From: Candidatus Yonathbacteria bacterium RIFCSPHIGHO2_02_FULL_44_14
GTDB taxonomy: Bacteria > Patescibacteriota > Minisyncoccia > Phycocordibacterales > UBA1550
Length of the DNA stretch: 64,000 nucleotides
Assembly: GCA_001823535.1 (NCBI GenBank)
Contig: MHUT01000012.1
Coordinates: 355-64,354 of the forward strand
Direction of reading: 5' to 3'
The notes beneath the pieces are model-generated. The model saw only the letters and a program-made list of their open reading frames with translations, was not told the origin of the DNA and made no database searches. The position numbers and the translations under genes were made by a program. Of the stretch, positions 9,706-33,437 are shown piece by piece (position 1 is the stretch's first letter; each line of letters starts with the position of its first letter).

Positions 9706-9800
9706 AAGAATTTGTGGCGATGGGGTCTCGGTCCCGAGTTACTAATTCGCTACGCTCATAAGTACTCGCGACCCCACCTCACTGTCGCTTCGCGACATGT
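9706..9800 (-). promoter_or_regulatory. structured 5' leader upstream of prmC (nested hairpins)
   Basis: On the minus-strand RNA, GGUGGGGUC...GACCCCAUC form a 9-bp closing stem around two internal hairpins (CGAGU..ACUCG, CUCGG-CCGAG); a further GTCGC-ttc-GCGAC hairpin follows. Confidence 0.3.
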
Positions 9801-9882
9801 TCCGGCTTTCGATTCCCCACGCAAGCAAAGTAGTTTGCTTGCTCATCGCCCACAATAAAAGCACCTAAAGGTGTTTTTATTG

Positions 9883-9957
9883 TGGGCGATGGGGGAATCG
9901 AACCTCCGACCTTTACAATGTCAATGTAACGCTCTAACCATCTGAGCTAATCGCCCA
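9883..9957 (-). tRNA. tRNA-Val (anticodon GAC)
   Basis: Reverse complement GGGCGATTAGCTCAGATGGTTAGAGCGTTACATTGACATTGTAAAGGTCGGAGGTTCGATTCCCCCATCGCCCA folds as a cloverleaf with anticodon loop TTGACAT. A hairpin at 9849-9886 follows the 3' end. Confidence 0.9.
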
Positions 9958-18834: not shown

Positions 18835-19299
18835 ATGAAACAATCTTTTTTTGAACGACTCACGGGCGCGATTTCTCTCAAGGACCGATCCTCGGATTTT
18901 GAAGAAAACGTCCCTGTTGAGCAGCCTCCACAAAGCTCTTTTAGTCAATGGGAGACGGAAGAGGCTCAGGAGGGCGAACTTGCTGTAGATGTATATCAGA
19001 CAAATGAATCAATTATCATCCAAGCAATGGTCGCTGGTGTAGCTTCTGAAGATCTTTCTGTGTCTGTCACGCGCGAAATGGTAACGATCAAAGGTAGGCG
19101 CGAAGGTCCAAAAGAAATCTCTGCTGAAAATTATTTTTATCAAGAACTCTACTGGGGCGCCTTTTCCCGCACAATTCTTCTCCCTGCCGAAGTTGAAACC
19201 GAGGAGGTAGAAGCGACCGAGAAACACGGGCTTCTTACCATAAGGCTTCCAAAAATAGACAAGGAGCGCAGGCAGACTATCAAGATTAAGTCGATATAG
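18835..19299 (+). CDS. small heat-shock protein (Hsp20 / alpha-crystallin family)
   Basis: Alpha-crystallin domain: AVDVYQT...LSVSV...VTIKGRRE...GAFSR...LPAEV...GLLTIRLPK. Confidence 0.85.
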   Translation: MKQSFFERLTGAISLKDRSSDFEENVPVEQPPQSSFSQWETEEAQEGELAVDVYQTNESIIIQAMVAGVASEDLSVSVTREMVTIKGRREGPKEISAENYFYQELYWGAFSRTILLPAEVETEEVEATEKHGLLTIRLPKIDKERRQTIKIKSI

Positions 19300-19334: not shown

Positions 19335-19365
19335 AAAAATACCGTAACATTGTTACGGTATTTTT
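19335..19365. terminator. intrinsic terminator after hsp20
   Basis: AAAAATACCGTAAC-att-GTTACGGTATTTTT. Confidence 0.65.
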
Positions 19366-19367
19366 AA

Positions 19368-19455
19368 TGGTGCCGAGGACCAGGGTTGGTCACGGATTAC
19401 TAAGTCTTCTCGTTTGCTTCGCAAACTGTGAGGACTAAGTATCCTCTACCCCGGC
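19368..19455 (-). pseudogene. degenerate tRNA-Phe-like fragment (duplicated tRNA 3' end, att-scar candidate)
   Basis: The 21-nt TGGTGCCGAGGACCAGGGTTG at 19368-19388 is identical to the 3' end of tRNA-Phe (19586-19606). The upstream sequence can pair as a GCCGGGG/CCUCGGC acceptor stem, but the T-loop lacks GTTC and no canonical anticodon arm is present. Confidence 0.4.
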
Positions 19456-19542
19456 TCGCAATTTTTGAAAAAGTCATGAAGAAAACTTTTTCAAAAATAT
19501 TGCTGCGCCTTTCAACCCTTTTATAATGCTCCGCACATTTAT

Positions 19543-19596
19543 CCTCGGCACCATAAGAAAAACCACCCGCAGGTGGTTTTTCTTATGGTGCCGAGG
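19543..19596. terminator. 25-bp-arm palindrome overlapping the tRNA-Phe 3' end (terminator-like)
   Basis: CCTCGGCACCATAAGAAAAACCACC-cgca-GGTGGTTTTTCTTATGGTGCCGAGG; the right arm includes the tRNA-Phe acceptor 3' strand plus CCA. Confidence 0.6.
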
Positions 19597-19661
19597 ACCA
19601 GGGTTGAACTGGTGACCCCTCGCTCTTCAGGCGAATGCTCTACCAACTGAGCTACCTCGGC
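19586..19661 (-). tRNA. tRNA-Phe (anticodon GAA), CCA encoded
   Basis: Reverse complement GCCGAGGTAGCTCAGTTGGTAGAGCATTCGCCTGAAGAGCGAGGGGTCACCAGTTCAACCCTGGTCCTCGGCACCA. Confidence 0.9.
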
Positions 19662-19684
19662 ATGCGTTTTCTATTGTACCAAAG

Positions 19685-19750
19685 TTTATGGCCGAGCCTG
19701 CGTCCAAGACGTGAATTTGTTAATTCAGAATCTGCTGATTCGGCTACATC
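19685..19750 (-). repeat. copy B of the ~60-nt conserved palindromic upstream element, 24 nt upstream of tRNA-Phe
   Basis: TTATGGCCGAGCCTGCGTCCAAGACGTGAATTTGTTAATTCAGAATCTGCTGATTCGGCTAC is 63/66 identical to copy C. Confidence 0.6.
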
Positions 19751-19813
19751 GGCGAATTTTATACTTTTGAAAATTTCAAATAATTGTTAATTATTTGACA
19801 GTACTGTCGCCTA

Positions 19814-20101
19814 CTACTTCCCTATCAAATTCTTCACCGACTGTACATCTGTAGGAATAGAGCCGGCAGTTTTTTCAAAATTTTGAATGATGCCCATCGA
19901 AGTCTGAAAAGTCTTCATATACTTTTGAATCGTTGGCTGAAAATAGTAGTAAACTCCAAAAATGGACCCGAGGATTATCGCCCAATACACGAAAGTAAAA
20001 AACGAACTCCAGCGCTGTGCGCGACGCATAGAGCGGAGAATTTTGTTATTCTCGTGGGTTATTTCTAACAGCTCGTCGAGCTTGCGATCATCAAGGTCCA
20101 T
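19814..20101 (-). CDS. hypothetical membrane protein (95 aa, 1-2 TM)
   Basis: Clean ORF with a hydrophobic core (FFTFVYWAIILGSIFGVYYYF). Confidence 0.45.
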   Translation of the reverse strand: MDLDDRKLDELLEITHENNKILRSMRRAQRWSSFFTFVYWAIILGSIFGVYYYFQPTIQKYMKTFQTSMGIIQNFEKTAGSIPTDVQSVKNLIGK

Positions 20102-20195
20102 AAATGAACTATATCAGATTTCACCAAAAATTCAAACGCTTTCAGTAAAAAAGCCCGGTTGTTGCCGGGCTTTTGAAAAAATTGACATACTTTGA

Positions 20196-20549
20196 TTATA
20201 CGTGTGCCAGTCGCTCAAACTCGTTCCTATGTGGAACTGTTTTTATTGATACTGGCTTGATTTCCTTGAGACACTCCGCTGGCGCCAAGAGCGACTCTTC
20301 GAGTAATCCTCGGCAGCGAAACCTACAGATTGCCAGCCCATTATCAAGAACCTTCACAACATTAATCTCGATCTTGATCAATCCGTCAAGACAACCCGTG
20401 TAGCAACGCAAAAGCTTGCTACGGGTTCCAGTATCAAGCACATTTACTGAATGGTCCAGAAACTGCTTAAACCGAGCAACGTCGAGAAAGTTTCTTCCTA
20501 ATGCGATTACCTTGGCTCTCCTTTTTGTACAAGTGACTTTTTTTGCCAT
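20196..20549 (-). CDS. hypothetical Cys-rich protein (118 aa)
   Basis: Internal ATG at 20549 (MAKKVTCTKRRAK...) with CYTGC and CRFRC pairs; no family recognised. Confidence 0.45.
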   Translation of the reverse strand: MAKKVTCTKRRAKVIALGRNFLDVARFKQFLDHSVNVLDTGTRSKLLRCYTGCLDGLIKIEINVVKVLDNGLAICRFRCRGLLEESLLAPAECLKEIKPVSIKTVPHRNEFERLAHV

Positions 20550-20694
20550 GTTACACTTCCTTTCTTTTAGGATAAGACTTGGTTGTAAAAACAAAAAAAT
20601 GGGAATTGCTCCCGCGTGAAATTGTACCACTAGAACCAAAACAATGTCAACTGTTTGTACAAGGCGAATTCAGGTTTTTCTTTGGTGGGCCGTT

Positions 20695-21003
20695 CTAATG
20701 AGGGAAAATGAATTCTCCAAGCACAAACATTAAAAGGGCGAGACCATATAACACTGCCAAGTATTTGCAAACTGACCACTCTTTGTGCTTGACGATAGTA
20801 TAAATTCCGATAACGAAAGATAGCAGACCGGACAGATTAAGTATGAGATTAAGCGCGACATTGAATATTGAGAGTAGAAGATTGCCCTCAATGACAGCAG
20901 AATCTCCCCCTATGGCGAAGGCAAAAATGAGCGAAAACGCCATTGATATAACTAAGACGATACCAAATCCCACCGACCATTTACCTGAACGAGATTGCGG
21001 CAT
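20695..21003 (-). CDS. small 3-TM membrane protein (paralog 1; holin-like size and topology)
   Basis: MPQSRSGKWSVGFGIVLV...; shares the N-terminal MPxxKxGKWSVG motif and topology with the adjacent gene. Confidence 0.5.
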   Translation of the reverse strand: MPQSRSGKWSVGFGIVLVISMAFSLIFAFAIGGDSAVIEGNLLLSIFNVALNLILNLSGLLSFVIGIYTIVKHKEWSVCKYLAVLYGLALLMFVLGEFIFPH

Positions 21004-21030
21004 AAAATTTATTTTTATAATAAAAATTAA

Positions 21031-21321
21031 TTAATCATTGATAAATAAACTATGAAGGAGGATAAAAAGTATAGTACATACGCCTATGATGATGGATAGA
21101 AAAACCAAAACAGAACGCTCTTTATATTTCCTAATCGCCAATATTCCGGTGATTAAAGCAATGATGCTTGCCGGGAATGCAACAGCTACTGTTATATCCC
21201 ACCAGTGGTCGTCAAAATTAAGTATTTTTAGTATGAAAACAAGCACGCAAGAAATGGCAATTGCGATTAAGAAAAAGGCGTTCAAACCTACTGACCATTT
21301 ACCTAATTTAGTTTTTGGCAT
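21031..21321 (-). CDS. small 3-TM membrane protein (paralog 2)
   Basis: MPKTKLGKWSVGLNAFFLIAIA...; tandem paralog of 20695-21003. Confidence 0.5.
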   Translation of the reverse strand: MPKTKLGKWSVGLNAFFLIAIAISCVLVFILKILNFDDHWWDITVAVAFPASIIALITGILAIRKYKERSVLVFLSIIIGVCTILFILLHSLFIND

Positions 21322-21791
21322 AGATTATCTTTTCCTCTTGTTAGTTAATATTTTTCCGACTTTATGATTAAAAAATTTTCTTCCCCCAAAATTAAAACAT
21401 GGTTCGAGCCGATGTTTTTCTACGGGTTCTTTTGCGGTTTCGAGCGGTGCGGCTCTGCCACCATTCCGAATTTTCGCGGAGGGAATTTTCCGAAAAAATG
21501 CGTTCAGACTAATTCAAGGATACTGCGCAAGAAGGAAAAGTCAAAGAGTTTTGGTTCGTGGTGCCCCATGTCGGTCTCGGAATTGCGGGTGTCAGACCCC
21601 ACAAGGGTTCCTTGGGTACTTTTAGCGTATCAAACTGAACCCGCTCAGTCTGGTCTCAATAGACACGATAGACACTATAAAAAGAGCTTGGGTTGTGTCT
21701 CGTGAGACATACACCATTTGCTCGCGTCGGAACCTTAAATTTGTAAATGATACAAATGAGACACTAAGACGGCATTTTAAGGCTGTCTCAT

Positions 21792-22286
21792 TTACAGTAG
21801 TTTACCATTTTTATACCACTCCATCGTAATGATCTGACCTGCTTTTTTAGATACTCCAAAGACTATGTATAATCCAAGCCTATAACCATAGCCATCCAGC
21901 CTTTGAGTCAATCCTTCTATTTTCCATATGTCGTCTCGAGCTGGGCTATTATTGGTTTCAATTTCTATGGCAACCAGATTATTTTGATCAGTATTTCTTT
22001 CGTGAACAGCTATATCCAACTCTATTAATTTACCTTTTAAGTATTTAGAGGCGCCTAGATGTTTATTATAAAAAGGATCACTGTGGATGTCACCAGTGTT
22101 AAATTTTTTGGATATTTGTGCTGCAAAACAAGACATAAAATTTCTTTCGACTCTGCCATTCTTCAAGATACCAATCTCGGCTTCGATTGTAGAATTTGCA
22201 GCACTTTCAATTTTGGACATCAGGTCTGCTTCTTCTTTAGTAATTTGTTGTTGACTGTTTGGCATATTAAAATGTGTGCACGACAA
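21792..22286 (-). CDS. hypothetical protein (164 aa) downstream of mrr
   Basis: Clean ORF with a hairpin terminator at 21745-21785; no family recognised. Confidence 0.5.
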   Translation of the reverse strand: MSCTHFNMPNSQQQITKEEADLMSKIESAANSTIEAEIGILKNGRVERNFMSCFAAQISKKFNTGDIHSDPFYNKHLGASKYLKGKLIELDIAVHERNTDQNNLVAIEIETNNSPARDDIWKIEGLTQRLDGYGYRLGLYIVFGVSKKAGQIITMEWYKNGKLL

Positions 22287-22356
22287 ACTATGATAGCCAC
22301 GACTTGTCCAACACTCTTATCAAATAAGAACACTTGCAATATTGCGTGTGACTTTA

Positions 22357-23259
22357 TTATTCTTCAAAAAAATAATCAGAGTCTACTTTTTTAATCTGGT
22401 ATGTTGCTAGAATTGATACACCAATATCATGCTCAATCATCAATCTAACCAGTTCTGAACCATCAACAAGAATAACCCTGCAATCTAATTTCTTTACGTA
22501 ATCAAGAGCCTCTTGTGTGAAATTAGATGTTGTAATAAAGATACCTTTCTTTGCAAACTTTCCAGTTAATGCACCTACAAATCCTTGTACATCCGGGCGA
22601 CCAACAGTTCCTTTCCATCGCTTTGCTTGAAGATAAATCAAATCAAGACCCAGTTTGTCTTCTTTGATAATTCCATCTATCCCTTCATCCCCAGTTTTTC
22701 CTAGTGCCTGCCCAGCATCCTTTCTAGAACCACCATATCCCATACCTATAAGTAGATCAACGACCACCTGCTCAAAAAAGGCAGGTGAACCATTCATCAG
22801 ATTACTTAATAAATCAGCCTCTAGGTCCTTTAGAATTCTCTGATAGCTTGATTCTAAAGATTCTTCCGGAGTATTTTCTGAAACATCTTCTTTTTCTTGC
22901 GTCACTTGATCCTCGCTACCATATTGAAACTCGCGAAACGAGGAAAACTGATCCAAAAAATGCGTATCAATAACTTCTGGTTTTTGACTTAGAGCTTTCA
23001 ATCCTTGCTTTGTGATTTTTACGTAACTCTTTTTAGGAGCATCTACTAAACCAGCCTTTTTGAGATATGTTTTTGCCCATCCAGTTCTGTTACTAAAAAT
23101 ACTCATTCTTCCGCTAGGGGTGCGCTGGACAAGTTCGTCTTCGGTTAATTTAAATTCAGCAGAAAGTGCCCCTTCAATTTCTTTAAGAGTATGCTCTTTT
23201 TCATCGGACAATTGTCTTAGGAAAGGCAAAATAATATATCTGAATTTTGGTATAGCCAT
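22357..23259 (-). CDS. mrr: Mrr-family type IV (modification-dependent) restriction endonuclease
   Basis: N-terminal winged-helix (Mrr_N-like) and a C-terminal Mrr_cat core: GGSRKDAGQALGKTGDEGIDGIIKEDKLGLDLIYLQAKRW nearly matches E. coli Mrr. Confidence 0.85.
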   Translation of the reverse strand: MAIPKFRYIILPFLRQLSDEKEHTLKEIEGALSAEFKLTEDELVQRTPSGRMSIFSNRTGWAKTYLKKAGLVDAPKKSYVKITKQGLKALSQKPEVIDTHFLDQFSSFREFQYGSEDQVTQEKEDVSENTPEESLESSYQRILKDLEADLLSNLMNGSPAFFEQVVVDLLIGMGYGGSRKDAGQALGKTGDEGIDGIIKEDKLGLDLIYLQAKRWKGTVGRPDVQGFVGALTGKFAKKGIFITTSNFTQEALDYVKKLDCRVILVDGSELVRLMIEHDIGVSILATYQIKKVDSDYFFEE

Positions 23260-23360
23260 AAATATTTTGTACTCAAATTATAGCATTTTAGCTAACCTAT
23301 TCAAAAAAAGAGAGTTTTTAAACCTTTTAATTTGGTGGTGGTATCTACCACTAATTACAA

Positions 23361-25247
23361 CTATTTTAGCTGGTAGTAGAAGTAGGTTCCGTTAGGAAAT
23401 TTAATGTTAGGAACCCATAACGGTCGATCTTCCCACCCCTTATTGGCTTCACCCTTTAGCCTATAGAGTGTGAGCACAAGCCTGTCGTTGAAGCGTGCGC
23501 CCATCTCACGGTCAGTAGGAGAGAGTAAGGTACCTGTTCCTTTGCTGATACTTCTCTCTGTTCTGACAATAAGATGACAGTCGTACTTCGCACCTTTCTT
23601 GAGAGTCTCAACACAGTCTGCGAATGAGTGCTGATTCCAAAGATCACTTTTTTCTACACTAACAAGACGCAGTATCTTTTCAGCTTCGTCTAGTGAAATA
23701 TCCTTTTCCATGTCCTTACTACCAAGCTCCGCGTCCAAAGCAGGGAGGCTGGTGTGCGTTGGATTAAGTGGAAAATAATTAACCCCACCCGCGATGACCA
23801 TCAGGTCTTCTTTGAGAACAACGCTCATGCGTGTTGGGCGGGTTCCTTTTGGAGTAAGGAGGCTGACAGCCTGAGGTCCTTTTTCTAGAAGAGTACTGAA
23901 CAGAGCATTGTTAGCATCATTCAGTTCTCGAAAAAGTTTTATGAGCGGTCGCGGACTGAAAAGGCGACAGAGCCCAGGATCTCGGTCATATCCGAATATT
24001 CTGGCGTGTTGCCACGAAGTATCTGCTTGGGGAGTTTTCGCGCTTCTGCAATAATAGACGATTTGCAGACCGGGAAATGTAACACCTCGCCCGAGTGTAT
24101 TACCACCGATCACAATATTGAGACCTTTATCATACACGGATCCTTCCGGTGTTTTTGAGTTCAGAACAGTAATATTTACGCTCGGCATATCGGCACGAAG
24201 GAATCGCATAATTTCATCAAAGGGTTTAATATCTGTTTTTGTTTTTGAAAGCTCCTCCCATGCATCACGTAGATCAAATTCGAGGGTGGAAGAATTTGCA
24301 ATAAGATCGGTTTTCACTCCTTCCAGGAATTTTTCCACCTTTGTCCTTACAGTTGAATGTTCACTTATTTTTACTCCGGGATGAATCAGCATGCTACACG
24401 CCGACCTCTCTTTGGTCAAAAAGAGATCGGATGCCACTACCAAAAAATGAAGGACTGCTTTACGAAGGCCGATTGGCACATGCTCTGCTTTTAGTAAATC
24501 GTCGCGCTCATTATCCTCTGTTTCAATAAGATTTTTTGAGTCCTCGCCATAAAAGAAATCACCGCCGAGATACCCCTTATTTGGTGGCAGATAAAAAGAA
24601 TACTGGGGCTTCCATCCCGATAACTCTATCTGAAGAACAAGAGACTGTGGGGTTGCTGTAACATGGAGGTAAATTGACGATGGAGACTGCTTGTTTATTT
24701 TCTCAAGCAACATATTAATCGTACTCTGCTCATTTTGATTTACTTTTGTGTTGAGACTTGAGGCGTCTGCTTCATCATCGAGAAGAAAAAGTGGTTCATC
24801 CTTATAGATAGGATTTGTAGCAATATTGTTTGCCCACGTCTTCAAAACGCCGGAGTTTTTCTTAAGTACGAGTATCGTCGGCATAGAAAGACCGCGCGTA
24901 AGGAAGGCTTCCTCGTCTGATTCCCCAAGTACATTGAAGCCCGCCATGAATCCTCCGAGAAAATTCTTTGCACGCTCCAGTGTTTGTTTGTGTAGAATAA
25001 CATTATCAGTGGTTACCAATATAAAAAACTTGAATCCTCTGTCAGCAGCTGTAGCCGCGATCGCAAGCATCTGTCCTGTCTTCCCACTCTGCACGTGTCC
25101 ATAAAGCAGGCCAGAAACGTGACTATTGTGGTCAAAAGTATCTATATGCTTCTTTGCAAATTCCTCTGCACTTTTAGTTAGCGCCTCAACAAGCGCTGGG
25201 TTAGTAGCGCCTACTCGTCTTAAATAATTTTCTAAAAATTTGCTCAT
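23361..25247 (-). CDS. P-loop NTPase, Z1-domain-like restriction-system component (628 aa)
   Basis: Walker A LLYGHVQSGKTGQM near the N-terminus; the size and its position between a C5-MTase/REase and mrr resemble Z1-domain proteins of R-M loci. Family assignment by eye only. Confidence 0.65.
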   Translation of the reverse strand: MSKFLENYLRRVGATNPALVEALTKSAEEFAKKHIDTFDHNSHVSGLLYGHVQSGKTGQMLAIAATAADRGFKFFILVTTDNVILHKQTLERAKNFLGGFMAGFNVLGESDEEAFLTRGLSMPTILVLKKNSGVLKTWANNIATNPIYKDEPLFLLDDEADASSLNTKVNQNEQSTINMLLEKINKQSPSSIYLHVTATPQSLVLQIELSGWKPQYSFYLPPNKGYLGGDFFYGEDSKNLIETEDNERDDLLKAEHVPIGLRKAVLHFLVVASDLFLTKERSACSMLIHPGVKISEHSTVRTKVEKFLEGVKTDLIANSSTLEFDLRDAWEELSKTKTDIKPFDEIMRFLRADMPSVNITVLNSKTPEGSVYDKGLNIVIGGNTLGRGVTFPGLQIVYYCRSAKTPQADTSWQHARIFGYDRDPGLCRLFSPRPLIKLFRELNDANNALFSTLLEKGPQAVSLLTPKGTRPTRMSVVLKEDLMVIAGGVNYFPLNPTHTSLPALDAELGSKDMEKDISLDEAEKILRLVSVEKSDLWNQHSFADCVETLKKGAKYDCHLIVRTERSISKGTGTLLSPTDREMGARFNDRLVLTLYRLKGEANKGWEDRPLWVPNIKFPNGTYFYYQLK

Positions 25248-25250
25248 ATT

Positions 25251-26303
25251 TTATCTTGAAAAATCTAGCAGCCATACTTCTGGATCGGTGGTCTCCTTAA
25301 GTGAAATTGTATTCCGTCCATATTTTTGAAACACTTCTGGTGTCACAGGCTGTCCGACCTTGAGGCACCCAGCTCTTTCGAGTCTTCCTTTAATCCACCG
25401 GCCTAGAGTTTTCAAGTCGCCTTCTGATCTGAAATTCTTTCCATAGTCTCCCTGAATTTTGCAGTTGAACCGCCACCCGTCGTCAGTGTACACACGGATT
25501 ACTGAGTCTCGTTTTGGATAACCGTCTGCCATAGTTATCTCTATTGGAACAATGAGCTCTACTTCATACCAGTGACGAGGGCGTATTGCTCCTGTACTTT
25601 TCGCAAGCCTTCCTTTCCCAAAATAAGTATTAAGATTACTCTTGGCTTCCGCCTTGAGAGGAAGATCGAATACGCGGTCTGTAAGCGTGCTTTCTATTTT
25701 ACGGTATTCTTCTCCTTCTAGTTTGTCTACATCAATTCTGTCTTTCAGCAAGTCAGGCATTTCAATAAACGTCCCTGGTTTTGGCCAATCGAGAATGTCC
25801 GTTGATGCTTTTACGACGAGTTCGTTATGTAGACCATCAAGCTTCATGAGCACACTCTCCTCGGTAAAAAGAGCATCCACCTCCCATTGTCGATTATCGA
25901 GGATATTACCAAGATTCGATGACCCCATCATTGCGGAAACCGGTGCAGGCTTTCCGTTTTTCCAGAACACATAGGTTTTCCCGTGGAATTTAAAAGCCGT
26001 GCATACGCGCACACTGCCTATACCTTTCTCCTTAAGAAATTCTGCAAGGTCTATAGCAGCTTCATACTGCGCGCGTGTGAATCCCTCTCTCCCGTGCATG
26101 CCGATTACAAGACTGCACATTTTGTCTTTGTTCTCTTCATTATAAAATAGGAGAATCGATTTTAGCTCCAACAGAGAGTCTTCTGTAACATAGCCAGTAG
26201 CTATTTTTATGCTGTCAGAATTAACGATGCCTGATTCAAAAGCTTCGCTGAATGAAGAGTTATCGTACTCACAAGGTTTGATTTTTGAATAAAGTAATTC
26301 CAT
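25251..26303 (-). CDS. PLD-superfamily restriction endonuclease (NgoFVII/BfiI-like) with a C-terminal B3-like DNA-binding domain
   Basis: FKFHGKTYVF...GSSNLG (HxK ... GSxN PLD nuclease motif). C-terminal RVYTDDGWRFNCKIQGDYGKNFRSEGDLKTLGRWIKG resembles the B3/EcoRII-N-like domain of R.BfiI; size is 350 aa. Confidence 0.7.
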   Translation of the reverse strand: MELLYSKIKPCEYDNSSFSEAFESGIVNSDSIKIATGYVTEDSLLELKSILLFYNEENKDKMCSLVIGMHGREGFTRAQYEAAIDLAEFLKEKGIGSVRVCTAFKFHGKTYVFWKNGKPAPVSAMMGSSNLGNILDNRQWEVDALFTEESVLMKLDGLHNELVVKASTDILDWPKPGTFIEMPDLLKDRIDVDKLEGEEYRKIESTLTDRVFDLPLKAEAKSNLNTYFGKGRLAKSTGAIRPRHWYEVELIVPIEITMADGYPKRDSVIRVYTDDGWRFNCKIQGDYGKNFRSEGDLKTLGRWIKGRLERAGCLKVGQPVTPEVFQKYGRNTISLKETTDPEVWLLDFSR

Positions 26304-26314
26304 ACGAACTTATT

Positions 26315-27379
26315 TTACATATCAGATACTTCATCTAAAAACTTCCTAATTGCTTTTGCAATCGGCTTTATTCCAGCAGGTGGCACAGAATTACCAATCT
26401 GCCTTCTAACCTCAGTTATCGATCCAACGAACTCAAAATCATCTGGATAGCCAAATAGACGGGCACGTTCTCGATTAGTGAGAGGCCGGTTTTCTTTCCA
26501 ATGGTACCCCCATGTACCCCCACCACCACCAGCAATAATAGTAGTCGAGGGCTTATCTGGATGCAAGCGACGGTATACATGGGAGATCATCCCCTTCACA
26601 TAGTGCGGTGAGGTTTTAGGGATATCGGTGAAGTTTCCACCTGGCGGAATCAGTCTCAATTTTGCGACCGTGCTTGGATTAATGTTTTGGTGCTCGTTAT
26701 TGAAAAATACTTTTTCAGCATCCTTCAGAGCTTCTTTTGCCGTAACATACTTATCTGGTGTATGAGTGGGAAATGGTAGCTTAAATTCTTTATTAAGATC
26801 GTTACGGACACCAATGATTAACACACGCCGGCGAAGCTGGGGAGCGCCGTAGTCTGCAAAGTTTATAGGATAAACATTCACTTTATAGCCTGCCTTTCCA
26901 AAATCGTCCACTATCTGAGTGACTGCGTTGCCTTTGTTTGCGCTTAAAAGTCCTCTAACATTTTCGGCAACAAACATTTTCGGCTGCTTCGCCAAAACAA
27001 CACGAACGAATTGCCTATACAGGTTCCCACGATCAGTTTTAAGACCCATACGCTTCCAGATCATGCTGAAATCCTGACATGGAAACCCGCCGAGAACAAT
27101 GTCACATTCTGGAATATCTTCATTTTTAACAGCGGTTATACTCCCTTCCATTATATGGTCGCCAAAATTTTTCTTGAAAGTTTCGCAGGCCCAGTGGTTC
27201 ACATCATTTGCCCACAAGATATCAAATCCTGCATCTTTGAAACCGAGGTCCATTCCACCGGACCCAGAAAAAAGAGAGGCCACGCGGTGTACTTTTTTCT
27301 CTATAACGGACTTGCCCGAGCGGGCAACCTGTGGCTTCGCTGAACGGTTATTTTGTTTTTGTGGAGTTGTTGTTCTCAT
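26315..27379 (-). CDS. DNA (cytosine-5)-methyltransferase
   Basis: Motif I LFSGSGGMDLGF, motif IV GGFPCQDFS, motif VI ENV and a C-terminal target-recognition/RxR region. Confidence 0.9.
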   Translation of the reverse strand: MRTTTPQKQNNRSAKPQVARSGKSVIEKKVHRVASLFSGSGGMDLGFKDAGFDILWANDVNHWACETFKKNFGDHIMEGSITAVKNEDIPECDIVLGGFPCQDFSMIWKRMGLKTDRGNLYRQFVRVVLAKQPKMFVAENVRGLLSANKGNAVTQIVDDFGKAGYKVNVYPINFADYGAPQLRRRVLIIGVRNDLNKEFKLPFPTHTPDKYVTAKEALKDAEKVFFNNEHQNINPSTVAKLRLIPPGGNFTDIPKTSPHYVKGMISHVYRRLHPDKPSTTIIAGGGGGTWGYHWKENRPLTNRERARLFGYPDDFEFVGSITEVRRQIGNSVPPAGIKPIAKAIRKFLDEVSDM

Positions 27380-27496
27380 GTGGTCATTATACCTTAATGC
27401 GTTAAAAAAAGCCGCTACTTTTTGCTGTAAAAATTATTGAGCCACGATTTGGGAAAAATTGTCCACGGTCACATCCTCCAAACTGGATATTTCACT

Positions 27497-28045
27497 TTAA
27501 AGTTTCCATTCAATGAACGCGAAGTTCTCTGTCGTGAGGCCATAATCAAGAGACTTCTCGAGCCACTGTATTTGGGTCTCCCGAATATTGTCTTTCTTTT
27601 GACGCTTGAGTTCAATGAACAACATCATATCTCCTTTCCACACGAACACATCCCAACAACCACCAGACCGACCAGTCTTGGCACGGATGGAGTCAATTAA
27701 TTCTTTTTGTTTTTGTGGAATCTCTATGGGGTCAACAACATCAGGAAGACCGACTCTGTAATTTCTTCTGTACGAATCAACCCATACGCCATTCCATCCA
27801 TGTGATTGAAGCAAACGCAAAACGGCGAGCTCTGCAAATACAGGCTCGCCGTTCCAATCGACAACTGGTTTGTTGTTATATGTGTTAGGTATCGATGCTC
27901 CTTTCCATGGAGTGAGTGTAAGAAAATATTTCTGCATGGAAATTTGCTCACCCGAAGGAAGCGAGAATATTTCGCCATCAACTTTGTATGGTTGTAAAAA
28001 CTCAAGATTACCTTCTTGAGAAGTATGAGTATGGTCGTCGTCCAT
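27497..28045 (-). CDS. VRR-NUC domain nuclease (PD-(D/E)xK)
   Basis: GGCWDVFVWKGDMMLFIELKRQKKDNIRETQIQWLEK (D...ExK plus the QxxW tail typical of VRR-NUC). Start set at the MDDDHTH ATG (28045) because the track's upstream extension lies in an inverted-repeat region. Confidence 0.65.
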   Translation of the reverse strand: MDDDHTHTSQEGNLEFLQPYKVDGEIFSLPSGEQISMQKYFLTLTPWKGASIPNTYNNKPVVDWNGEPVFAELAVLRLLQSHGWNGVWVDSYRRNYRVGLPDVVDPIEIPQKQKELIDSIRAKTGRSGGCWDVFVWKGDMMLFIELKRQKKDNIRETQIQWLEKSLDYGLTTENFAFIEWKL

Positions 28046-28786
28046 ATTTGTTCGTCGCGATTTTGTTATACCTAATTTGGGGTACAAAAAGCCCGCTACC
28101 AGGAAGGCACCTTGCGGTAACCTCTACCAGAGTTTCCCCTGGTAACGCGACGAACGCCCTGATAACGGGTTCTTTATGTTCGTCGCGATTTGCAGCCATA
28201 CCCTAAAGATTTTTGAAACCCTTTAGGGGTTAGGCCGACTTCTATGAAGTTGTAAGTGCATTGTAGCAGAAAATCTGCTACTCCTCCATTTAAGCTTAGT
28301 TCTGAAGATTTGTGTAGCTCAGTTGTCTACACCTGTGGATAACTCAATTTACACTGTCCCGCGAAAAACCGTGATGGAATTTGAGTATTTTTCAGCTCAT
28401 CTCTATCTATTTACACTACTGACATCCTTGACAGAAAAAATCAAAAAAGTGGCTAAAAATCTATTGCAATTTTTATAAATCAATGAAACAATATGTATGT
28501 TAGCTCATTTCATATTTATAAATACCTGTCGCTTACGCGACAAACGCTCCTATCTTCAGAGGTGAATGCCAAGGCAGACTGAAGCGAGGGTCGTTGATAG
28601 GATTTACATATAACAACTGATCGGTACTGGGGTCACAAGCCAGAAAGGTGTCCGATGAAGAACTGTAAATCGAGTAAATAACAAACGGAAGTTTGTCGTT
28701 TATTTGATTTACAGTTTTTTGTATATCAATAAACGTCAGACATCCATTTGAGATGTGCTGACGTTTATTCGTTATTAACAAAAAAT
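28046..28786. promoter_or_regulatory. 740-bp noncoding region: candidate origin / operator region of the island
   Basis: Three copies of GTTCGTCGCG in alternating orientation (28052, 28146, 28178). AT-rich stretch with two TTTATAAAT motifs (28468-28528). Multiple nested inverted repeats (28660-28716; 28728-28769, ending 18 nt before the ParB-MTase ATG). Confidence 0.45.
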
Positions 28787-30109
28787 ATGGATATTAAAAT
28801 CACGTATGTGCCTATTGGTTCTTTGAATCCAAGCACATACAATCCACGCAAGTGGAACGAGGCGCAAACTAATGCACTCAAAGAATCGATTACAAAGTTT
28901 GGAATAGTTGACCCCGTCATTTGCAACTCTGCATCTGAACGAATGAACACGGTGATTGGCGGACACTTTCGATTGAAGGTTGCTAAAGACCTCGGACATA
29001 CTGAGATGCCAGTGGTCTATGTAAATATTCCTGATATCGAGAAAGAAAAAGAACTAAATGTGCGATTGAATAAGAACCTCGGTGAGTTTGACTTCGAGCT
29101 TCTGAAAGATTTCGGTGAAGCGTTCCTCGGCGAAATGGGTTTTAGCACTGAAGAGCTTGATAATATATTTGCGATTGACCCAACCCCAGAAGTATTCGAC
29201 TTGGAAAAGGAGCTGGAGAAGCTCAACATTCACGAAATTAAAGTAGAGAAGGGTGACATATACGAAATTGATGGATCACGGCTCATGTGTGGTGACAGCA
29301 CTATTGAATCCGACATGCTGAAACTGATGGAAGGAGCACAGGTGGATATGGTATGCACTGATCCCCCCTATATTTTGGACTACCTCAAAGGGAAAACAAA
29401 ACAAAAGGACGGAGTGACTGAAGGGTTCGGACTGAAGAAGAATCGTAAGTATCTTGAGACAGATGTGCTGCCATACAACTTCACAGAACTCTGGATGGCA
29501 AGCGTGGCAAAGGTGCAGAAGCCAGACTTCTCTATCATGATATTTGAGCATCCAAAGAATCTCCGCACTATCTGGAATGAATTGGAGAAACACTGGAAAT
29601 ACCGCAACACCATTACATGGCATGTTCCCAATCGTGTGCAGGGATTTGCGGCTAAGTACAAATTCTTTAACAAGAGTGATATCGCTCTGGTTGGCACTGA
29701 TGGAGAGATAGCTCTTAATCTTGAGACAGAGAGTGACGAGCTTTTTCAGAATGAATACGAGAATGCAATCTTTGCAACTTCTGGGAAACCTCATTTCGAG
29801 TCATATGAGAAAGGCAAGAAGATTTGTCCAACTGATTTCATTGACCATATTGCGGCCGACGAAAAATCTTCGGGGCAAGGAATTATCTTTGGCACAAAGC
29901 CGTTAGAATTATTGATCCCCTACATCAAGGTACTGACCAAACGTGGTGACTTGGTGCTTGAGCCATTCGGTGGATCAGGAAGTACACTCATTGCTTCGCT
30001 GAAGCTTGGGCGTAATTGTCGCATCATGGAAAAGTCCCCCGTGTATACGGAAGTGATAAAGGGTCGTTGGGAGAAGCACACGGGAAAGAAGGCGAAGAAG
30101 ATTAACTAA
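28787..30109 (+). CDS. ParB/Srx-like nuclease domain fused to a beta-class N6-adenine/N4-cytosine DNA methyltransferase
   Basis: N-terminal ParBc-like region (YVPIGSLNPSTYNPRKW...GGHFR). Motif IV DPPY (MVCTDPPYIL) precedes motif I (LEPFGGSGSTLIAS), which is the beta-class order. ATG at 28787 is chosen. Confidence 0.85.
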   Translation: MDIKITYVPIGSLNPSTYNPRKWNEAQTNALKESITKFGIVDPVICNSASERMNTVIGGHFRLKVAKDLGHTEMPVVYVNIPDIEKEKELNVRLNKNLGEFDFELLKDFGEAFLGEMGFSTEELDNIFAIDPTPEVFDLEKELEKLNIHEIKVEKGDIYEIDGSRLMCGDSTIESDMLKLMEGAQVDMVCTDPPYILDYLKGKTKQKDGVTEGFGLKKNRKYLETDVLPYNFTELWMASVAKVQKPDFSIMIFEHPKNLRTIWNELEKHWKYRNTITWHVPNRVQGFAAKYKFFNKSDIALVGTDGEIALNLETESDELFQNEYENAIFATSGKPHFESYEKGKKICPTDFIDHIAADEKSSGQGIIFGTKPLELLIPYIKVLTKRGDLVLEPFGGSGSTLIASLKLGRNCRIMEKSPVYTEVIKGRWEKHTGKKAKKIN

Positions 30110-30117
30110 CCACTTCT

Positions 30118-30804
30118 ATGCCTTCTCCTAAAACAAAGAACAAAACGGAGAAGCGATTGGAAACATTAGCGGTAAAGACAAGGGCGCAGAAGCAGGCGTT
30201 CCTCGAACAGCTCCCAAAGTATCCGATAGTACAGGTCGCCTGTGAGAAATCAGGTGTCGGTCGTTCGACGTACTATGCGTGGCGAAAGGATGATAAAGAA
30301 TTCGCGAAGGAAGCCGACAAAGCCATTAGTAGTGGTGAGCTCTTCATCAACGATATGGCAGAGTCGCGCCTCATTCAGAATATTCAGAACGGTAACAACA
30401 CCGCCATTATCTTTTGGCTGAAGAATCATCACGGTGGATACAATGACCGTATCGTGCATGAGCATGAACACTCACTTGAGCTTGTGGATGAGGATCGCAA
30501 GGCTATCGTAAAAGCCCTGATGAACATCGGTCTTGGAAATGTTCTCGTGAATAACGGCATAGACCCAGAGCAGTGGCACGAAAAACAGCGACTTGAAAAA
30601 GAGGAGCACATGAGGCGGGTAAATGGGGTCATTGGGTCTGCACCAGAAAAGGCGGATACTATTTTTAAAATTCCTTCTCGTCCCAGTCCACCAGCAGTTG
30701 AAATGCCAAACACTCCACCAAAAAAGCGACCAGTGAAAAAAGGGATAAACCTTAAAGAGTACTTCAGTGATGTAGCGGTTAAGAAGTGCCTTGGGAGTAA
30801 ATAG
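30118..30804 (+). CDS. HTH protein resembling a phage terminase small subunit
   Basis: N-terminal QVACEKSGVGRSTYYAWRKDDKEF HTH typical of TerS/transposase-like helix-turn-helix, followed by a basic proline-rich tail. Confidence 0.55.
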   Translation: MPSPKTKNKTEKRLETLAVKTRAQKQAFLEQLPKYPIVQVACEKSGVGRSTYYAWRKDDKEFAKEADKAISSGELFINDMAESRLIQNIQNGNNTAIIFWLKNHHGGYNDRIVHEHEHSLELVDEDRKAIVKALMNIGLGNVLVNNGIDPEQWHEKQRLEKEEHMRRVNGVIGSAPEKADTIFKIPSRPSPPAVEMPNTPPKKRPVKKGINLKEYFSDVAVKKCLGSK

Positions 30805-30823
30805 TTGTCTACTTCTTGTCTAC

Positions 30824-30851
30824 AACCCCGCCTAGGATACCTAGCGGGGTT
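30824..30851 (+). terminator. hairpin after the HTH gene
   Basis: AACCCCGCCTAGG-ata-CCTAGCGGGGTT. Confidence 0.5.
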
Positions 30852-30899
30852 GTGTCATTCCTTGTGTATATGAGCAAAATTGAAATGCCAGTTGGGGCT

Positions 30900-32189
30900 A
30901 TGGCGAGGGAGATTCAAGCCCCCGTAAGGGTTAAATATTGCCTGTACGCGAGAAAAAGTACAGAAAGTGAAGAACAGCAGGTCTTATCGATTGATAGCCA
31001 AATTAAGGAGATGCTCCAAATGGCAGAAAGGGACCATTTGGAGATTGTGGAAATCAAGAAAGAATCGCACTCGGCAAAGGAGGCTGGGCAACGGCCTGTC
31101 TTTAACGAGATTGTCGAGGAGATTAAAAGCGGTAAATTCAACGGCATCCTCACTTGGGCACCAGATCGCATCTCAAGAAACGCGGGAGACCTAGGGAGAA
31201 TTGTTGACTTGATGGATTCAGGCAGACTTCACGAGATACGCACCTATGGGCAGAAATTTAGCAACAACCCGAACGAGAAATTCTTACTGATGATCCTCGG
31301 ATCACAGGCGAAACTCGAGAACGACAACAAGGTGGTCAATGTAAAGCGTGGGTTACGTGCGCGATGTGAGATGGGTCTGTGGCCGTGTACCGCCCCTACT
31401 GGATACCTAAACAGTACTAATACCGAGAGAAGCTGTCATGTAGAAGTTGATATCGAGAGGGCTCCTATAATAAAGAAAATGTTTGAGAAAATAGCATACG
31501 AAGGATATAGTGGTCGCAAAGTACACTCATGGTTAAAAGACGAGATGAAATTCAAAACAAGAAATGGTAAACCTCTCAACGTAGGTAACATTTCTTTAAT
31601 ACTGAGAAATACTTTCTACTATGGAACCTTCGAATACCCGAAGAAGGGCGGGCAATGGTATCAAGGAAAACATACGCCAATAATAACCAAGGAGCTTTTC
31701 GACAAAGTGCAGGAGAGCCTCGTGGGCTACTCCACAAACAACGCAAGCAAAGAATTCGCCTTCACAAAACTGCTAACCTGCGGACTGTGCGGATCAGGGA
31801 TTACTGCCGATGAGAAATTCAAGAAACAACAAAATGGAACAGTACATCGGTACGTCTACTATGGATGTTGCAGATTTAGAGACAAAAACTGCAAATCAGG
31901 GTACATGCGAGAAGAGGATTTAATAGATCAACTTGCAGAACTCATGGATGAAATTCACCTTAATGAGATAGGGATGAAGGAAAAAATAAAAGAAGAAATC
32001 GAACGACACAAGAAATTCGAATCAGGATTACTTGGTATAAAGAGTACAACGGTAAAAATTGCCGACATCGACATACGAAACTACGCAAAATATATTTTGA
32101 GAGATGGAAAGACCTCAGAAAAACGAGAATTACTAACCTGCCTGAGGAGTAAGGTAACGATGGCGGAGAAACGGATTAAAATTAGTTAA
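30900..32189 (+). CDS. large serine recombinase (integrase/resolvase family)
   Basis: Catalytic YCLYARKSTESEEQ with the Ser nucleophile, a recombinase domain and a C-terminal zinc ribbon CGLCGS...YYGCCRFRDKNC plus coiled coil. ATG at 30900 is chosen; the track's TTG start at 30816 overlaps the upstream hairpin. Confidence 0.85.
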   Translation: MAREIQAPVRVKYCLYARKSTESEEQQVLSIDSQIKEMLQMAERDHLEIVEIKKESHSAKEAGQRPVFNEIVEEIKSGKFNGILTWAPDRISRNAGDLGRIVDLMDSGRLHEIRTYGQKFSNNPNEKFLLMILGSQAKLENDNKVVNVKRGLRARCEMGLWPCTAPTGYLNSTNTERSCHVEVDIERAPIIKKMFEKIAYEGYSGRKVHSWLKDEMKFKTRNGKPLNVGNISLILRNTFYYGTFEYPKKGGQWYQGKHTPIITKELFDKVQESLVGYSTNNASKEFAFTKLLTCGLCGSGITADEKFKKQQNGTVHRYVYYGCCRFRDKNCKSGYMREEDLIDQLAELMDEIHLNEIGMKEKIKEEIERHKKFESGLLGIKSTTVKIADIDIRNYAKYILRDGKTSEKRELLTCLRSKVTMAEKRIKIS

Positions 32190-33283: not shown

Positions 33284-33362
33284 AAGTTCGATGTATTAGC
33301 GGGGTCGTGTTTTTAGCTGTCAAAAAACCTTTATTTTGTAGACCTCGGTCGGTCTCACATGC

Positions 33363-33437
33363 TGGTGCCCTCGGCAAGAATCGAACTTACATCTAATCCT
33401 TAGGACGGATCTGTTCTATCCATTGAACTACGAGGGC
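33363..33437 (-). tRNA. tRNA-Arg (anticodon CCT), CCA encoded
   Basis: Reverse complement GCCCTCGTAGTTCAATGGATAGAACAGATCCGTCCTAAGGATTAGATGTAAGTTCGATTCTTGCCGAGGGCACCA. Confidence 0.85.

Follow-up and report, generated by a model that had tools for sequence, protein, structure and literature searches.

Several described systems resemble the element reported here. Like it, integrative elements and islands that use the 3' ends of tRNA or tmRNA genes insert on the 3' side and leave the gene intact, and tyrosine-integrase att sites at the T-loop sublocation, a position reportedly used by known integrase families, are marked by a direct repeat running from the T-loop to the 3' end. Tycheposon-like arrays and tRNA islands likewise contain tandem copies, the newest lying next to the tRNA, with occasional cargo between the repeats. 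MITE- and REP-type repeats (REP/BIME, Correia, RUP, ERIC and the Rickettsia palindromic elements) are also short, non-coding, multi-copy, patchily distributed and non-autonomous, and form stable hairpins at gene ends near terminators; these elements have fixed terminal inverted repeats of their own and short target duplications.

Other parallels concern the folded form. In integron attC sites, CTX-phi attP(+) and the HUH-type single-stranded DNA (ssDNA) elements, which include IS200/IS605 and IS91, structure is likewise kept above sequence, one strand is specific, and bulged or mismatched bases stand at conserved positions; IS91 targets GTTC. For class C (IIC) group II introns the insertion site lies just past an intrinsic terminator; like the element, they place a structured RNA that base-pairs with its flanks immediately 3' of a terminator hairpin. 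YrlA/Y RNA and the tRNA-like domain of tmRNA share with it a helix of 5' and 3' ends that copies the acceptor and T-arm, with hairpins in place of the remainder of the tRNA.

Here we analyse a 64,000-nucleotide stretch (the window) of contig MHUT01000012.1 from Candidatus Yonathbacteria bacterium RIFCSPHIGHO2_02_FULL_44_14. The genomes of the Candidate Phyla Radiation (CPR) are very small, and our impression is that descriptions of mobile elements or structured RNAs from them are scarce. A sequence-only reading of the window had explained a repeat of the tRNA-Phe 3' end as the scar of an integrase-borne element that was later deleted. Our results indicate instead that the 3' flank of this gene is best explained as one unit of an uncatalogued, non-coding, structured family of ~150-250 nt in Parcubacteria/CPR. 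We give a probability of roughly three in four to the reading that the element belongs to a family of mobile, structured elements of tRNA flanks.

Results

The tRNA-Phe flank is a complete repeat unit

The tRNA-Phe(GAA) gene is intact, encodes its CCA, and lies on the minus strand at 19586..19661, where it was called by both ARAGORN and Rfam (RF00005, 67.6 bits). Its nt 56-76, the 21-mer TGGTGCCGAGGACCAGGGTTG, occur exactly twice, in the tRNA itself (19586-19606) and 218 nt away at 19368-19388, with 0 occurrences expected by chance (100 shuffles, 2 mismatches allowed). The exact 21-nt repeat described earlier is therefore real, but of the three preceding nt that had been added to it only two are identical; similarity reaches 32 nt at 91% (19357-19388 versus 19575-19606), so these nt form part of an imperfect extension into the trailer.

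All parts of the unit lie on the minus strand, in the order tRNA, terminator hairpin P0, arm X', a core of hairpins P2 and P3, arm X and a second terminator. P0 (19554..19585), an intrinsic-terminator-like hairpin found by inverted-repeat search, comprises an A-tract, ACCACC-UGCG-GGUGGU and a U-tract; it was not listed by a consensus terminator scan, and equivalent hairpins are present in relatives. X' falls into two parts: an acceptor part (19542..19553, UGGUGCCGAGGA, seen as an inverted repeat) that is the perfect antisense of tRNA-Phe nt 65-76, that is, the acceptor 3' strand, discriminator and CCA, and a T part (19511..19519, AGGGUUGAA, a sequence match) antisense to nt 54-62, the T-loop and the start of the T-stem 3' strand. 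At the acceptor/T-stem boundary between them, folding predicts a small hairpin (19520..19541) at the P1a position, which in other family copies holds a conserved 25-nt hairpin. The conserved core (19388..19510) scores 69 bits (E = 3e-14) with covariance model R1, whose seed includes this copy, and consists of P2 (19459-19502) and the long P3 (19388-19450), both defined by covariation and R1. X, identified by repeat search at 19368..19388 (CAACCCUGGUCCUCGGCACCA), is the exact 21-nt copy of tRNA-Phe nt 56-76. A second terminator hairpin (19335..19365; terminator scan and inverted repeat) follows, convergent with the end of the plus-strand Hsp20 gene (18835-19299). Pairing of X' with X closes a compact multi-arm junction in the single strand of tRNA sense: the predicted fold of 19368-19553 combines P1 (the X'-X helix), P1a, P2 and P3 at -78.9 kcal/mol (z = -8.96).

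P0 is the centre of a long palindrome. Its existence had been noted before, with 25-bp arms at 19543-19596; it is slightly larger, with arms of 26 nt each (19542-19567 and 19572-19597) that are 100% complementary around a 4-nt loop. It joins the intrinsic-terminator-like hairpin to the antisense copy of the tRNA-Phe acceptor 3' strand and CCA. The sequence-only reading had seen the antisense segment only as part of a terminator; as shown below, it is a regular part of the element.

There is no ORF between the two repeats, no promoter-like site was found upstream of the element, and neither an integrase gene nor a remnant of one lies in or near it. The neighbouring genes encode Hsp20, PrsW, ValRS, small membrane proteins and restriction-modification (R-M) proteins. 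A second family copy lies in the window on the minus strand at 9714..9881 (R1, 57.7 bits; also in the seed), behind tRNA-Val(GAC) (9882-9956). It has the same parts: P0 (9854-9881), X' (9844-9853 and 9808-9818), P1a (9819-9843), core (9731-9807) and X (9714-9730). In this unit X' is perfect and X has decayed. The DNA spanning the tRNA-Phe repeats represents one complete member of a repeat family; it is not a tRNA in decay, nor is it what a deleted island left behind.

A structured family behind many tRNA genes

A core-pattern search matched at least 120 metagenome stretches and nothing in viral contigs. Across 463 kb of genome loci model R1 detected 24 copies, and across 634 kb of metagenome loci 135; in all, 161 copies were found, two of them in the window. 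Family units lie 3' of tRNA and tmRNA genes, always in the gene's own orientation. Among 138 informative copies, 114 follow a tRNA of the same strand at a distance of at most 1 kb, and for 87 of these the distance is at most 160 nt; for 18 copies the stretches examined show no upstream tRNA on the same strand, and one (L117) sits after a protein gene. The element-bearing tRNAs have more than 30 anticodons, and copies also follow one tmRNA gene and one tRNA gene split by a group I intron (L112).

An Rfam 15 scan of three copies returned, at the E-value threshold, only the tRNA itself and chance hairpin matches to microRNA models; the families without a match include group I and II introns, self-cleaving ribozymes, HEARO/IS605 RNAs, YrlA and tmRNA. 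The element had no match in phage or plasmid, and literature searches yielded nothing relevant to such an element. Around 120 loci (within 4 kb), no transposase, integrase, reverse transcriptase (RT) or HUH gene was recurrent; clustering of the ORFs there showed that only housekeeping genes recur. With retron-type RTs in mind, we found no RT-like cluster by the copies and none adjoining either copy in the window. One notable ORF cluster encodes an HTH protein with a LYWAEGSK motif, located 5' of tRNA genes and absent from the window.

The core, in which the sequence identity of the family resides, consists of helix a (GGC/GCC), a G-N-A/G-A internal loop, P2, GG, the long P3 and the end ...GUGAC|C56. 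RNAalifold predicted 22 pairs, with compensatory changes in 14, and across 133 distinct copies double changes occur in 19 of the 22; helix a alone uses six Watson-Crick combinations across the family. In the same 133 copies, 96.9% of cells are paired (75.9% when shuffled, 27-44% when slid), and the covariation score of 0.531, against 0.175 for shuffled alignments, was reached by none of 500 shuffles; because model fitting shaped the alignment and a sequence pattern supplied the seed copies, the conservation of fixed pattern positions is inflated, that of covarying positions is not. One G-U pair is kept in 120 of the 133 copies, and the strand of tRNA sense folds better in all 118 of 118 copies (-40.9 versus -32.7 kcal/mol). 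The family fold is conserved with covariation, as in structured RNAs.

The same core accounts for the 88-nt segment at 19368-19455, previously described as a degenerate tRNA. That it is not a functional tRNA was borne out, as neither ARAGORN nor Rfam (down to E<=10) calls one there. The GCCGGGG/CCUCGGC acceptor stem proposed for it can form (the MFE fold, at -33.8 kcal/mol and z = -4.3, contains 6 bp of it), but it clashes with helices backed by family-wide covariation. GCCGGGG is an instance of a family-wide motif, G-N-Y-GGGG, that is found also by Arg, Gly and Val tRNAs, where acceptor pairing is impossible. Homology to tRNA-Phe is limited to nt 56-76, and the same body adjoins unrelated tRNAs; save for its last 21 nt the segment is not tRNA-derived and represents the P3 hairpin of the family.

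Other candidates for this segment were rejected. Searches for an odd functional tRNA (Sec/Pyl-like, with a long variable arm, or Phe-like with a GAA loop) produced no call, and GC-GAA-GC tips occur also in P3 of copies beside other tRNAs. Known ribozymes and introns (hammerhead-like, group I P1/IGS logic, group IIC) gave no Rfam match. Read by eye, a hammerhead-like CUUAUGAGC...GCGAA at the P3 tip has U at the equivalent of G5, and its variants break the hammerhead core; they appear to fit a tandem G-A motif instead.

The arms are matched to the neighbouring tRNA

X' is defined in the family by complementarity to nt 54-73 of the neighbouring tRNA, and X runs from tRNA C56 past the 3' end into the trailer. 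X is intact (<=2 mismatches) in 22 of 73 non-redundant copies, where it always begins right after GUGAC, at C56. X' is found at 32 of 107 element-bearing tRNAs (30%) versus 13 of 168 others (8%). It is complementary even to a non-canonical T-loop base (G55 in L112) and at acceptor-stem G-U positions (L099), and its acceptor segment matches each genome's own tRNA in relatives (L024, L018, L047, L186).

Conservation of the arms is uneven. Over half of the copies have decayed arms, and P1 is contiguous over at least 6 bp in only ~43% (median 5, versus 3 for mismatched flanks). X' often retains a closer match to the tRNA than X does, and in L100 and some others X is perfect and X' mismatched. The partial P1 and these perfect X arms with mismatched X' indicate that the arms are not uniformly maintained and that X and X' need not arise together. 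Two origins of the arms were rejected. Templating by mature tRNA, or a primer-binding site, is contradicted by arms that follow the genomic trailer and not an added CCA; CCA is present at 10 of 87 element-bearing tRNAs and at 37 of 188 others, so the element does not go with a higher frequency of CCA. A snap-back model in which X' ends at C56 is contradicted by L112, where X' complements G55 and T54.

Patchy distribution and tandem copies in relatives

Hsp20 followed by a convergent tRNA-Phe is a conserved gene order across Parcubacteria, and in distant relatives the gap between the two is 10-100 nt. A 200-300-nt module in this gap is shared by the closest relatives (L017, L019, L022-L024, L026, L027, L032, L035 and L018), absent in L016, L030 and L031 and truncated in L021, so that filled and empty sites are compared at the level of relatives. 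Within the population itself all 15 of 15 contigs carry the element, identical across the region and without polymorphism. Two different subfamilies are found at this one locus, and L035 has 2-3 modules in tandem.

Elsewhere, L099 carries two identical 201-nt units followed by the decayed original 3' end, and among nested copies the newer one always adjoins the tRNA. Copies beside Ser-GCT (L110) and Ala-GGC (L162) have cores that are 92% identical and arms that are wholly different, each resembling its own tRNA; the P3 of the window and the P3 of a tRNA-Thr copy are nearly identical. Since no recombinase-type gene recurs within 4 kb of the 120 loci, mobility is read from this distribution and not from machinery: the element probably is, or recently was, mobile and non-autonomous.

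Discussion

The best-surviving alternative to a mobile family, though an improbable one, is a non-mobile host gene for a non-coding RNA that partners or mimics tRNA and is co-transcribed with each tRNA. Its X'-X helix would copy the acceptor/T-arm, and the RNA would be processed by, or titrate, RNase P, RNase Z and the CCA-adding enzyme, or else control maturation of the neighbouring tRNA. The strong covariation, strand-specific folding and conserved G-U pair are what such an RNA would show, as are the constant orientation and the frequently better preservation of X' (the Val copy of the window being an example); X'-X with P1a also mimics the stacked acceptor/T-stem geometry, with an arm where nt 8-48 would be. 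The distribution argues the other way, being patchy among close relatives and including two subfamilies at one locus, tandem and nested copies whose distal members decay, and an element at only two of the six tRNAs of the window. Arm decay in most copies, and a terminator directly upstream with no promoter, likewise speak against a host gene.

Less probable still, and largely refuted for this locus, is the classical att-site scar, in which a tyrosine-integrase element in the tRNA-Phe 3' end was internally deleted and left attL and attR 218 nt apart. A tRNA 3' end repeated directly over 21/21 nt, from a start in the T-loop, is typical of such sites, and the tandem accretion at one site in L099 and L035 and the true cargo between tRNA and distal copy in L173 and L151, one of them with a large serine recombinase, also resemble them. 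The distal 21-nt copy as a duplication of the tRNA 3' end, of the kind seen when insertion leaves the gene intact, is to that extent partly supported. The deleted element is what fails: between the end of the tRNA and the second repeat, ~220 nt make up the whole conserved, covarying element and are not random residue. The module is present at this locus in at least 10 genomes of relatives, and it follows more than 30 other types of tRNA. Integrases and integrase fragments are absent here and from the 4 kb around 120 other copies. At the tRNA-Phe locus of relatives, which the sequence-only reading had proposed to check for an intact element between the repeats, a large element is never present, only the same ~200-nt module, tandem copies of it, or nothing. 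The refutation offered with that reading, a repeat belonging to a conserved tRNA array in relatives, holds in a modified sense: what they conserve is a module of tRNA plus element, not a tRNA array. An attP with its own tRNA fragment leaves near-identical cores with different arms unexplained, and the antisense copy X' has no place in the model. Campbell-type integration of a circle with its own X was rejected because it does not explain cores 92% identical with different arms, and may still account for spread between genomes at the same tRNA.

A plain pseudogene, the decayed downstream copy of a tandem tRNA-Phe duplication, would explain the 21 identical 3' nt and the match of the first 10 nt of the 88-nt segment (GCCGgGGUAG) to the tRNA 5' end at 9/10 positions, but is refuted by the family data, the same body lying beside Val, Arg, Gly, Ser, Thr and other tRNAs, each with its own 3' end, with GCCGGGG family-wide and paired elsewhere in the consensus fold and no tRNA signal from ARAGORN or Rfam.

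The mobile, structured tRNA-flank family also departs from each of the systems introduced above. Compared with integrative elements, its unit is only ~200 nt, with no recombinase inside or nearby and a covarying, strand-specific folded core in place of protein-binding arms; it adds an antisense copy of the target, and one core lineage serves many tRNAs with locally matched arms. In its 161 copies without coding capacity and its patchiness the family agrees with MITEs, whereas its arms belong to the target and not to the element: they are taken from or matched to the tRNA, ~18-20 nt long, one direct and one inverted. The duplication, at least 18-21 nt and extending into the trailer, is not of a short fixed length, and the target class is tRNA genes.

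As in attC sites, the hairpin X-P0-X' would display the target as a duplex within a single strand, and as in HUH-type elements the junction falls within GTT|C of the T-loop; unlike these systems, the family has no IntI, Xer, TnpA or Rep gene, no R/L boxes and no IS ends. The IS605/HEARO Rfam models do not match its copies, and its folded form could be ssDNA or RNA. Relative to class C group II introns the element is about five times smaller and lacks domain V or another group II signature and an RT ORF; no Rfam intron matches the element, a group I intron being detected elsewhere, in L112. The YrlA (RF02553) and tmRNA models find no match in it either, and in contrast to tRNA-mimicking RNAs it mimics the individual neighbouring tRNA and not a generic one, with a T-loop that is fully paired, not folded. 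A TnpB/IscB-type guide RNA with X as guide was dismissed on logical grounds: it would also target the intact tRNA upstream, and the family has no associated nuclease gene.

How such a family would move can be outlined, though any single mechanism is unlikely to be the right one. Insertion would occur at or next to the part of the tRNA gene from T-loop to 3' end and leave a complete tRNA upstream, which would make the direct repeat the signature of insertion. The active form would be a single strand of tRNA sense, most likely RNA, with folded ssDNA as the alternative. The RNA could arise when transcription from the strong tRNA promoter reads through; given the terminator-like hairpin just upstream and the lack of a detected promoter, expression would depend on read-through. 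A putative trans-acting enzyme may recognise the core. X' may be kept complementary to the tRNA or to X either because the junction is needed or because the palindrome X-P0-X' is homogenised, possibly by intrastrand template switching.

More tentatively, and with the odds somewhat against it, the family may represent a new class of selfish element: a gene-less, ~100-nt, two-hairpin core, of RNA or ssDNA, that inserts between nt 55 and 56 of the T-loop, which is universally conserved, and acquires its arms from the target. Any tRNA or tmRNA gene could then serve as target. The direct copy of nt 56 to the 3' end would keep the tRNA whole, and the inverted copy would close a three-way junction. 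The arms could be gained through target-primed repair synthesis with hairpin template switching or through a ribozyme-like strand transfer at GUGAC|C56, and spread would ride on tRNA read-through transcription. We know of no transposition or integration scheme in which one core lineage carries arms matching each tRNA both ways; resolving the mechanism could reveal a new route of strand transfer or template switching, possibly with recognition of T-arm structure.

If confirmed, the family would represent a class of structured non-coding element that is abundant in the CPR and has gone unannotated, and would explain 'extra' tRNA 3'-end repeats, long palindromes behind tRNAs and the frequent assembly breaks there. 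Models like R1 would give annotators a means to mask or name such regions. A few copies have cargo between tRNA and element, comprising R-M systems, a serine recombinase island and an acetyltransferase-like ORF, which suggests that accessory genes in CPR genomes use these sites as landing pads.

The repeat behind tRNA-Phe is a complete folded unit

The source genome belongs to Candidatus Yonathbacteria (Parcubacteria, CPR), and the Hsp20 encoded in the window is 100% identical to a protein from a RIFCSPHIGHO2_01_FULL bin. ARAGORN and Rfam both call tRNA-Phe(GAA) at 19586-19661 (minus strand). An identical copy of the 21 nt at its 3' end (CAACCCUGGUCCUCGGCACCA) lies at 19368-19388, a direct repeat already noted in the sequence-only reading and expected zero times by chance; the likeness runs on over 32 nt at 91%. 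The palindrome that this reading had described around the acceptor 3' strand and CCA is perfect, with 26-nt arms (19542-19567 and 19572-19597), and is made of a terminator-like hairpin plus the antisense of those tRNA parts. An 88-nt segment beginning at the second repeat copy had been regarded as a degenerate tRNA-like fragment, and neither ARAGORN nor Rfam gives a tRNA there. GCCGGGG, taken for its acceptor 5' strand, is instead made up of the 3' strand of a core helix (GCC of helix a), a GG linker and the first GG of hairpin P3.

The stretch at 19368-19553 folds as one unit (-78.9 kcal/mol, z = -8.96). Its outer arms are X', antisense to nt 54-73 of the neighboring tRNA, and X, a direct copy from C56 to the tRNA 3' end; these pair as helix P1, and the fold further comprises a small acceptor/T-boundary hairpin and the core helices P2 and P3. 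The unit scores 69 bits against the family consensus in R1, a covariance model of the core whose seed included this copy, and its P3 closely resembles that of a copy at tRNA-Thr. We conclude that the unit is complete and belongs to a family of structured elements that appear to be non-autonomous.

Many metagenome contigs of the window population (L003-L006, L012-L014) stop inside the tRNA-Phe/element region, at ~19497-19686, and L013 changes to unrelated, higher-GC sequence within the tRNA-Phe acceptor 3' strand. The repeat and palindrome have probably caused the assembly to break or form chimeras here; a strain variant is a less likely alternative.

Presence of the module is patchy among relatives

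Because 15 contigs of the window population were identical throughout this region, loci were fetched from other species, 80 of them via Hsp20. The order Hsp20, then convergent tRNA-Phe, is conserved across Parcubacteria. Distant relatives have 10-100 nt between the two genes; the closest relatives have a module of 200-300 nt. In the tRNA direction, the tRNA is followed by a terminator-like hairpin (P0), X' (antisense of the T-loop, T-stem 3' strand and acceptor 3' strand), A(A/G)-RNC-G(S)A(R), P2, (Y)GA-GN'Y-GGGG, the long hairpin P3 (UCGMGARYACUUA ... UUAGURAYYYGUGAC), X from C56 onward and a second terminator. X' matches each genome's own tRNA-Phe (L024, L018). The module is absent from three loci (L016, L030, L031), truncated in L021 and present as two or three tandem units in L035, and two core subfamilies occupy this one locus in different genomes. 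In L020 (3462-3604), a perfect palindrome (arms ~36 nt) comes after tRNA-Phe and includes the antisense acceptor strand and CCA, with neither core nor X; it is either a remnant of the element or a sign that the palindrome can arise by itself.

The family lies behind tRNA genes of many anticodons

In the same relatives the P3 motif also occurs 3' of tRNA-Arg(CCU), tRNA-Gly(CCC) and tRNA-Gly(UCC), with arms fitting each tRNA. A search with a core sequence pattern matched at least 120 metagenome stretches and no viral contig. Among the matches listed, ~90 of 143 pattern instances had a same-strand tRNA 72-135 nt upstream, and more than 30 anticodons were represented. R1 found 24 copies on genome loci, every one on the tRNA strand, and 135 on 100 metagenome loci. 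A same-strand tRNA lay within 160 nt of 87 of the 161 copies; 15 were distal array members, 12 had the tRNA 160-1000 nt upstream and 6 had it more than 1 kb away, while 23 were cut by contig ends and 18 had no upstream tRNA in the retrieved stretch. One copy, in L186 (905-1479), lies behind a tmRNA gene and its arms match the tRNA-like 3' end, and a copy once thought to lack a tRNA (L112, 4331-4869) lies behind a tRNA gene that contains a group I intron.

Within the window, R1 reported the tRNA-Phe copy and one other, both members of its seed. This second copy (9714-9881, minus strand), which the sequence-only reading did not mention, lies behind tRNA-Val(GAC) at 9882-9956; its X' is perfect and bears a conserved 25-nt hairpin with a CUGC loop, and its X is partly decayed. 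No Rfam 15 family matches either window copy or the units of L099.

The core is conserved and the arms follow the adjacent tRNA

RNAalifold predicted helix a, P2 and P3, with compensatory changes in 14 of 22 pairs. In 133 distinct copies, whose alignment was fitted to the model, 96.9% of paired cells were complementary (75.9% after shuffling, 27-44% with slid partners), 19 of 22 pairs showed changes on both sides, and the covariation score of 0.531 (0.175 shuffled) was reached by none of 500 shuffles. Six Watson-Crick combinations were seen in helix a, and one P3 G-U pair was kept in 120 of the 133 copies. In all 118 copies compared, the tRNA-sense strand gave a more stable fold than the complementary strand (mean -40.9 versus -32.7 kcal/mol). 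The core is thus a conserved fold on the tRNA-sense strand.

Of 73 non-redundant copies adjacent to a tRNA, 22 have an intact X (no more than 2 mismatches), which in every case begins at C56, directly after GUGAC. X' is complementary to tRNA nt 54-73 in the strict sense: it mirrors non-palindromic T-loops, it mirrors a G55 in L112, and at a G-U pair in L099 it mirrors the 3' rather than the 5' strand. It is often interrupted at the 65/66 boundary by the 25-nt CUGC-loop hairpin. X' goes with the element, being present at 32 of 107 element-bearing tRNAs and 13 of 168 others. Arms decay: P1 reaches at least 6 bp in ~43% of copies, some copies combine a perfect X with a mismatched X' (L100), and one class has only a short P1 built from the last few tRNA nucleotides. 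Since the match of the arms extends to the genomic trailer, and element-bearing tRNAs encode CCA no more often than the others, the arms derive from the gene or primary transcript rather than from mature tRNA.

In L017 (tRNA-Arg) and L100 (tRNA-Pro), short cores of other, unrelated kinds likewise border on a direct copy of the neighboring tRNA 3' end, joined in L017 by an antisense copy. More than one element family may use such an insertion style in CPR genomes.

Mobility and possible origins

The main rival to a mobile element is a host RNA that partners the tRNA, an explanation that would suit both the covariation of the core and the tRNA-like geometry of X'-X; it sits poorly with patchy presence at the tRNA-Phe locus, arrays of copies, decaying arms and a terminator upstream. 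Besides this patchiness and the two subfamilies at the tRNA-Phe locus, several arrangements point to mobility. In L099, a pair of identical units of 201 nt precedes the decayed original 3' end, which has a different terminator, and in nested copies the tRNA-adjacent one is intact and the distal one truncated (L105, L030, L150). Copies at tRNA-Ser(GCU) in L110 and tRNA-Ala(GGC) in L162 have cores 92% identical over 104 nt and wholly different arms, each like its own tRNA, with X' perfect over 15-18 nt and X decayed past its first 7-14 nt. An integrase attachment-site scar, as originally proposed, survives in part: the direct repeat is the signature of a tRNA-preserving insertion, but the supposed scar is the complete element itself. 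No integrase, transposase or reverse transcriptase recurred within 4 kb of 120 loci.

We propose that the element of tRNA sense would fold as a single strand, most likely RNA from read-through, and be mobilized in trans, with the element-target junction at T-loop position 55/56. Three routes could give matching arms: template switching at the hairpin after the tRNA 3' end has been resynthesized by target priming, gradual homogenization of the palindrome X-P0-X', or recombination. A simple snap-back model is at odds with L112, and a circle carrying its own X fails to explain the L110/L162 pair.

The element shares site, direct repeat and tandem accretion with tRNA-targeting integrative elements, which, unlike it, encode their own recombinase and lack a folded core and inverted arm. 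It resembles MITE/REP-type repeats in size and copy number, whereas their ends are element-specific rather than tRNA-derived, and it has one feature each in common with single-strand hairpin recombination sites, group IIC introns and tRNA-mimicking RNAs. By their defining features it belongs to none of these classes, and no description turned up in Rfam 15, phage or plasmid collections, or a full-text literature search. It files under the broad kind of small non-autonomous elements at tRNA genes; a categorically new mechanism seems to us possible, with the odds somewhat against it.

Three loci carry cargo between the tRNA and a distal X'-core-X: a type III restriction-modification system (L151, 2373-7963), a large serine recombinase with a Schlafen/AlbA-HATPase protein (L173, 367-5902) and a GNAT-like ORF (L119, 403-1311). 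Element sites may therefore be landing pads for accessory genes.

Neighboring features

In relatives, tRNA-Arg(CCU) and tRNA-Gly(CCC) lie 0.4-2 kb beyond tRNA-Phe; in the window (33363-33437 and 33944-34015) they are ~13.7 kb from it. The interval at ~19800-33360 contains genes for small membrane proteins and for restriction-modification (Mrr, Z1, NgoFVII) and looks like a variable defense island on the 3' side of tRNA-Arg; its far end showed neither a tRNA-Arg 3'-end copy nor an element core. Within it lies a LOOT RNA (RF03000; 28104-28236, minus strand; Rfam, 70 bits, above the gathering score).

An ORF family of ~220-245 aa with an HTH-like N-terminal region and a LYWAEGSK motif (L106, L112, L116, L177, L209) is absent from the 64-kb window and has no Pfam, NCBIfam or PDB match. 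At all five mapped loci the ORF stops close to the start of a tRNA gene on its own strand (Lys, Met, Gly-UCC, Gly-GCC), from 15 nt upstream of it to 10 nt inside. By tblastn, L018, L033, L061 and L092 also have matches close to tRNAs of the same strand (Tyr, Arg, Phe), some 45-120 nt away as judged from tblastn and tRNA positions rather than mapped ORFs. The family may consist of free-standing genes akin to homing endonucleases, with tRNA loci as their targets.
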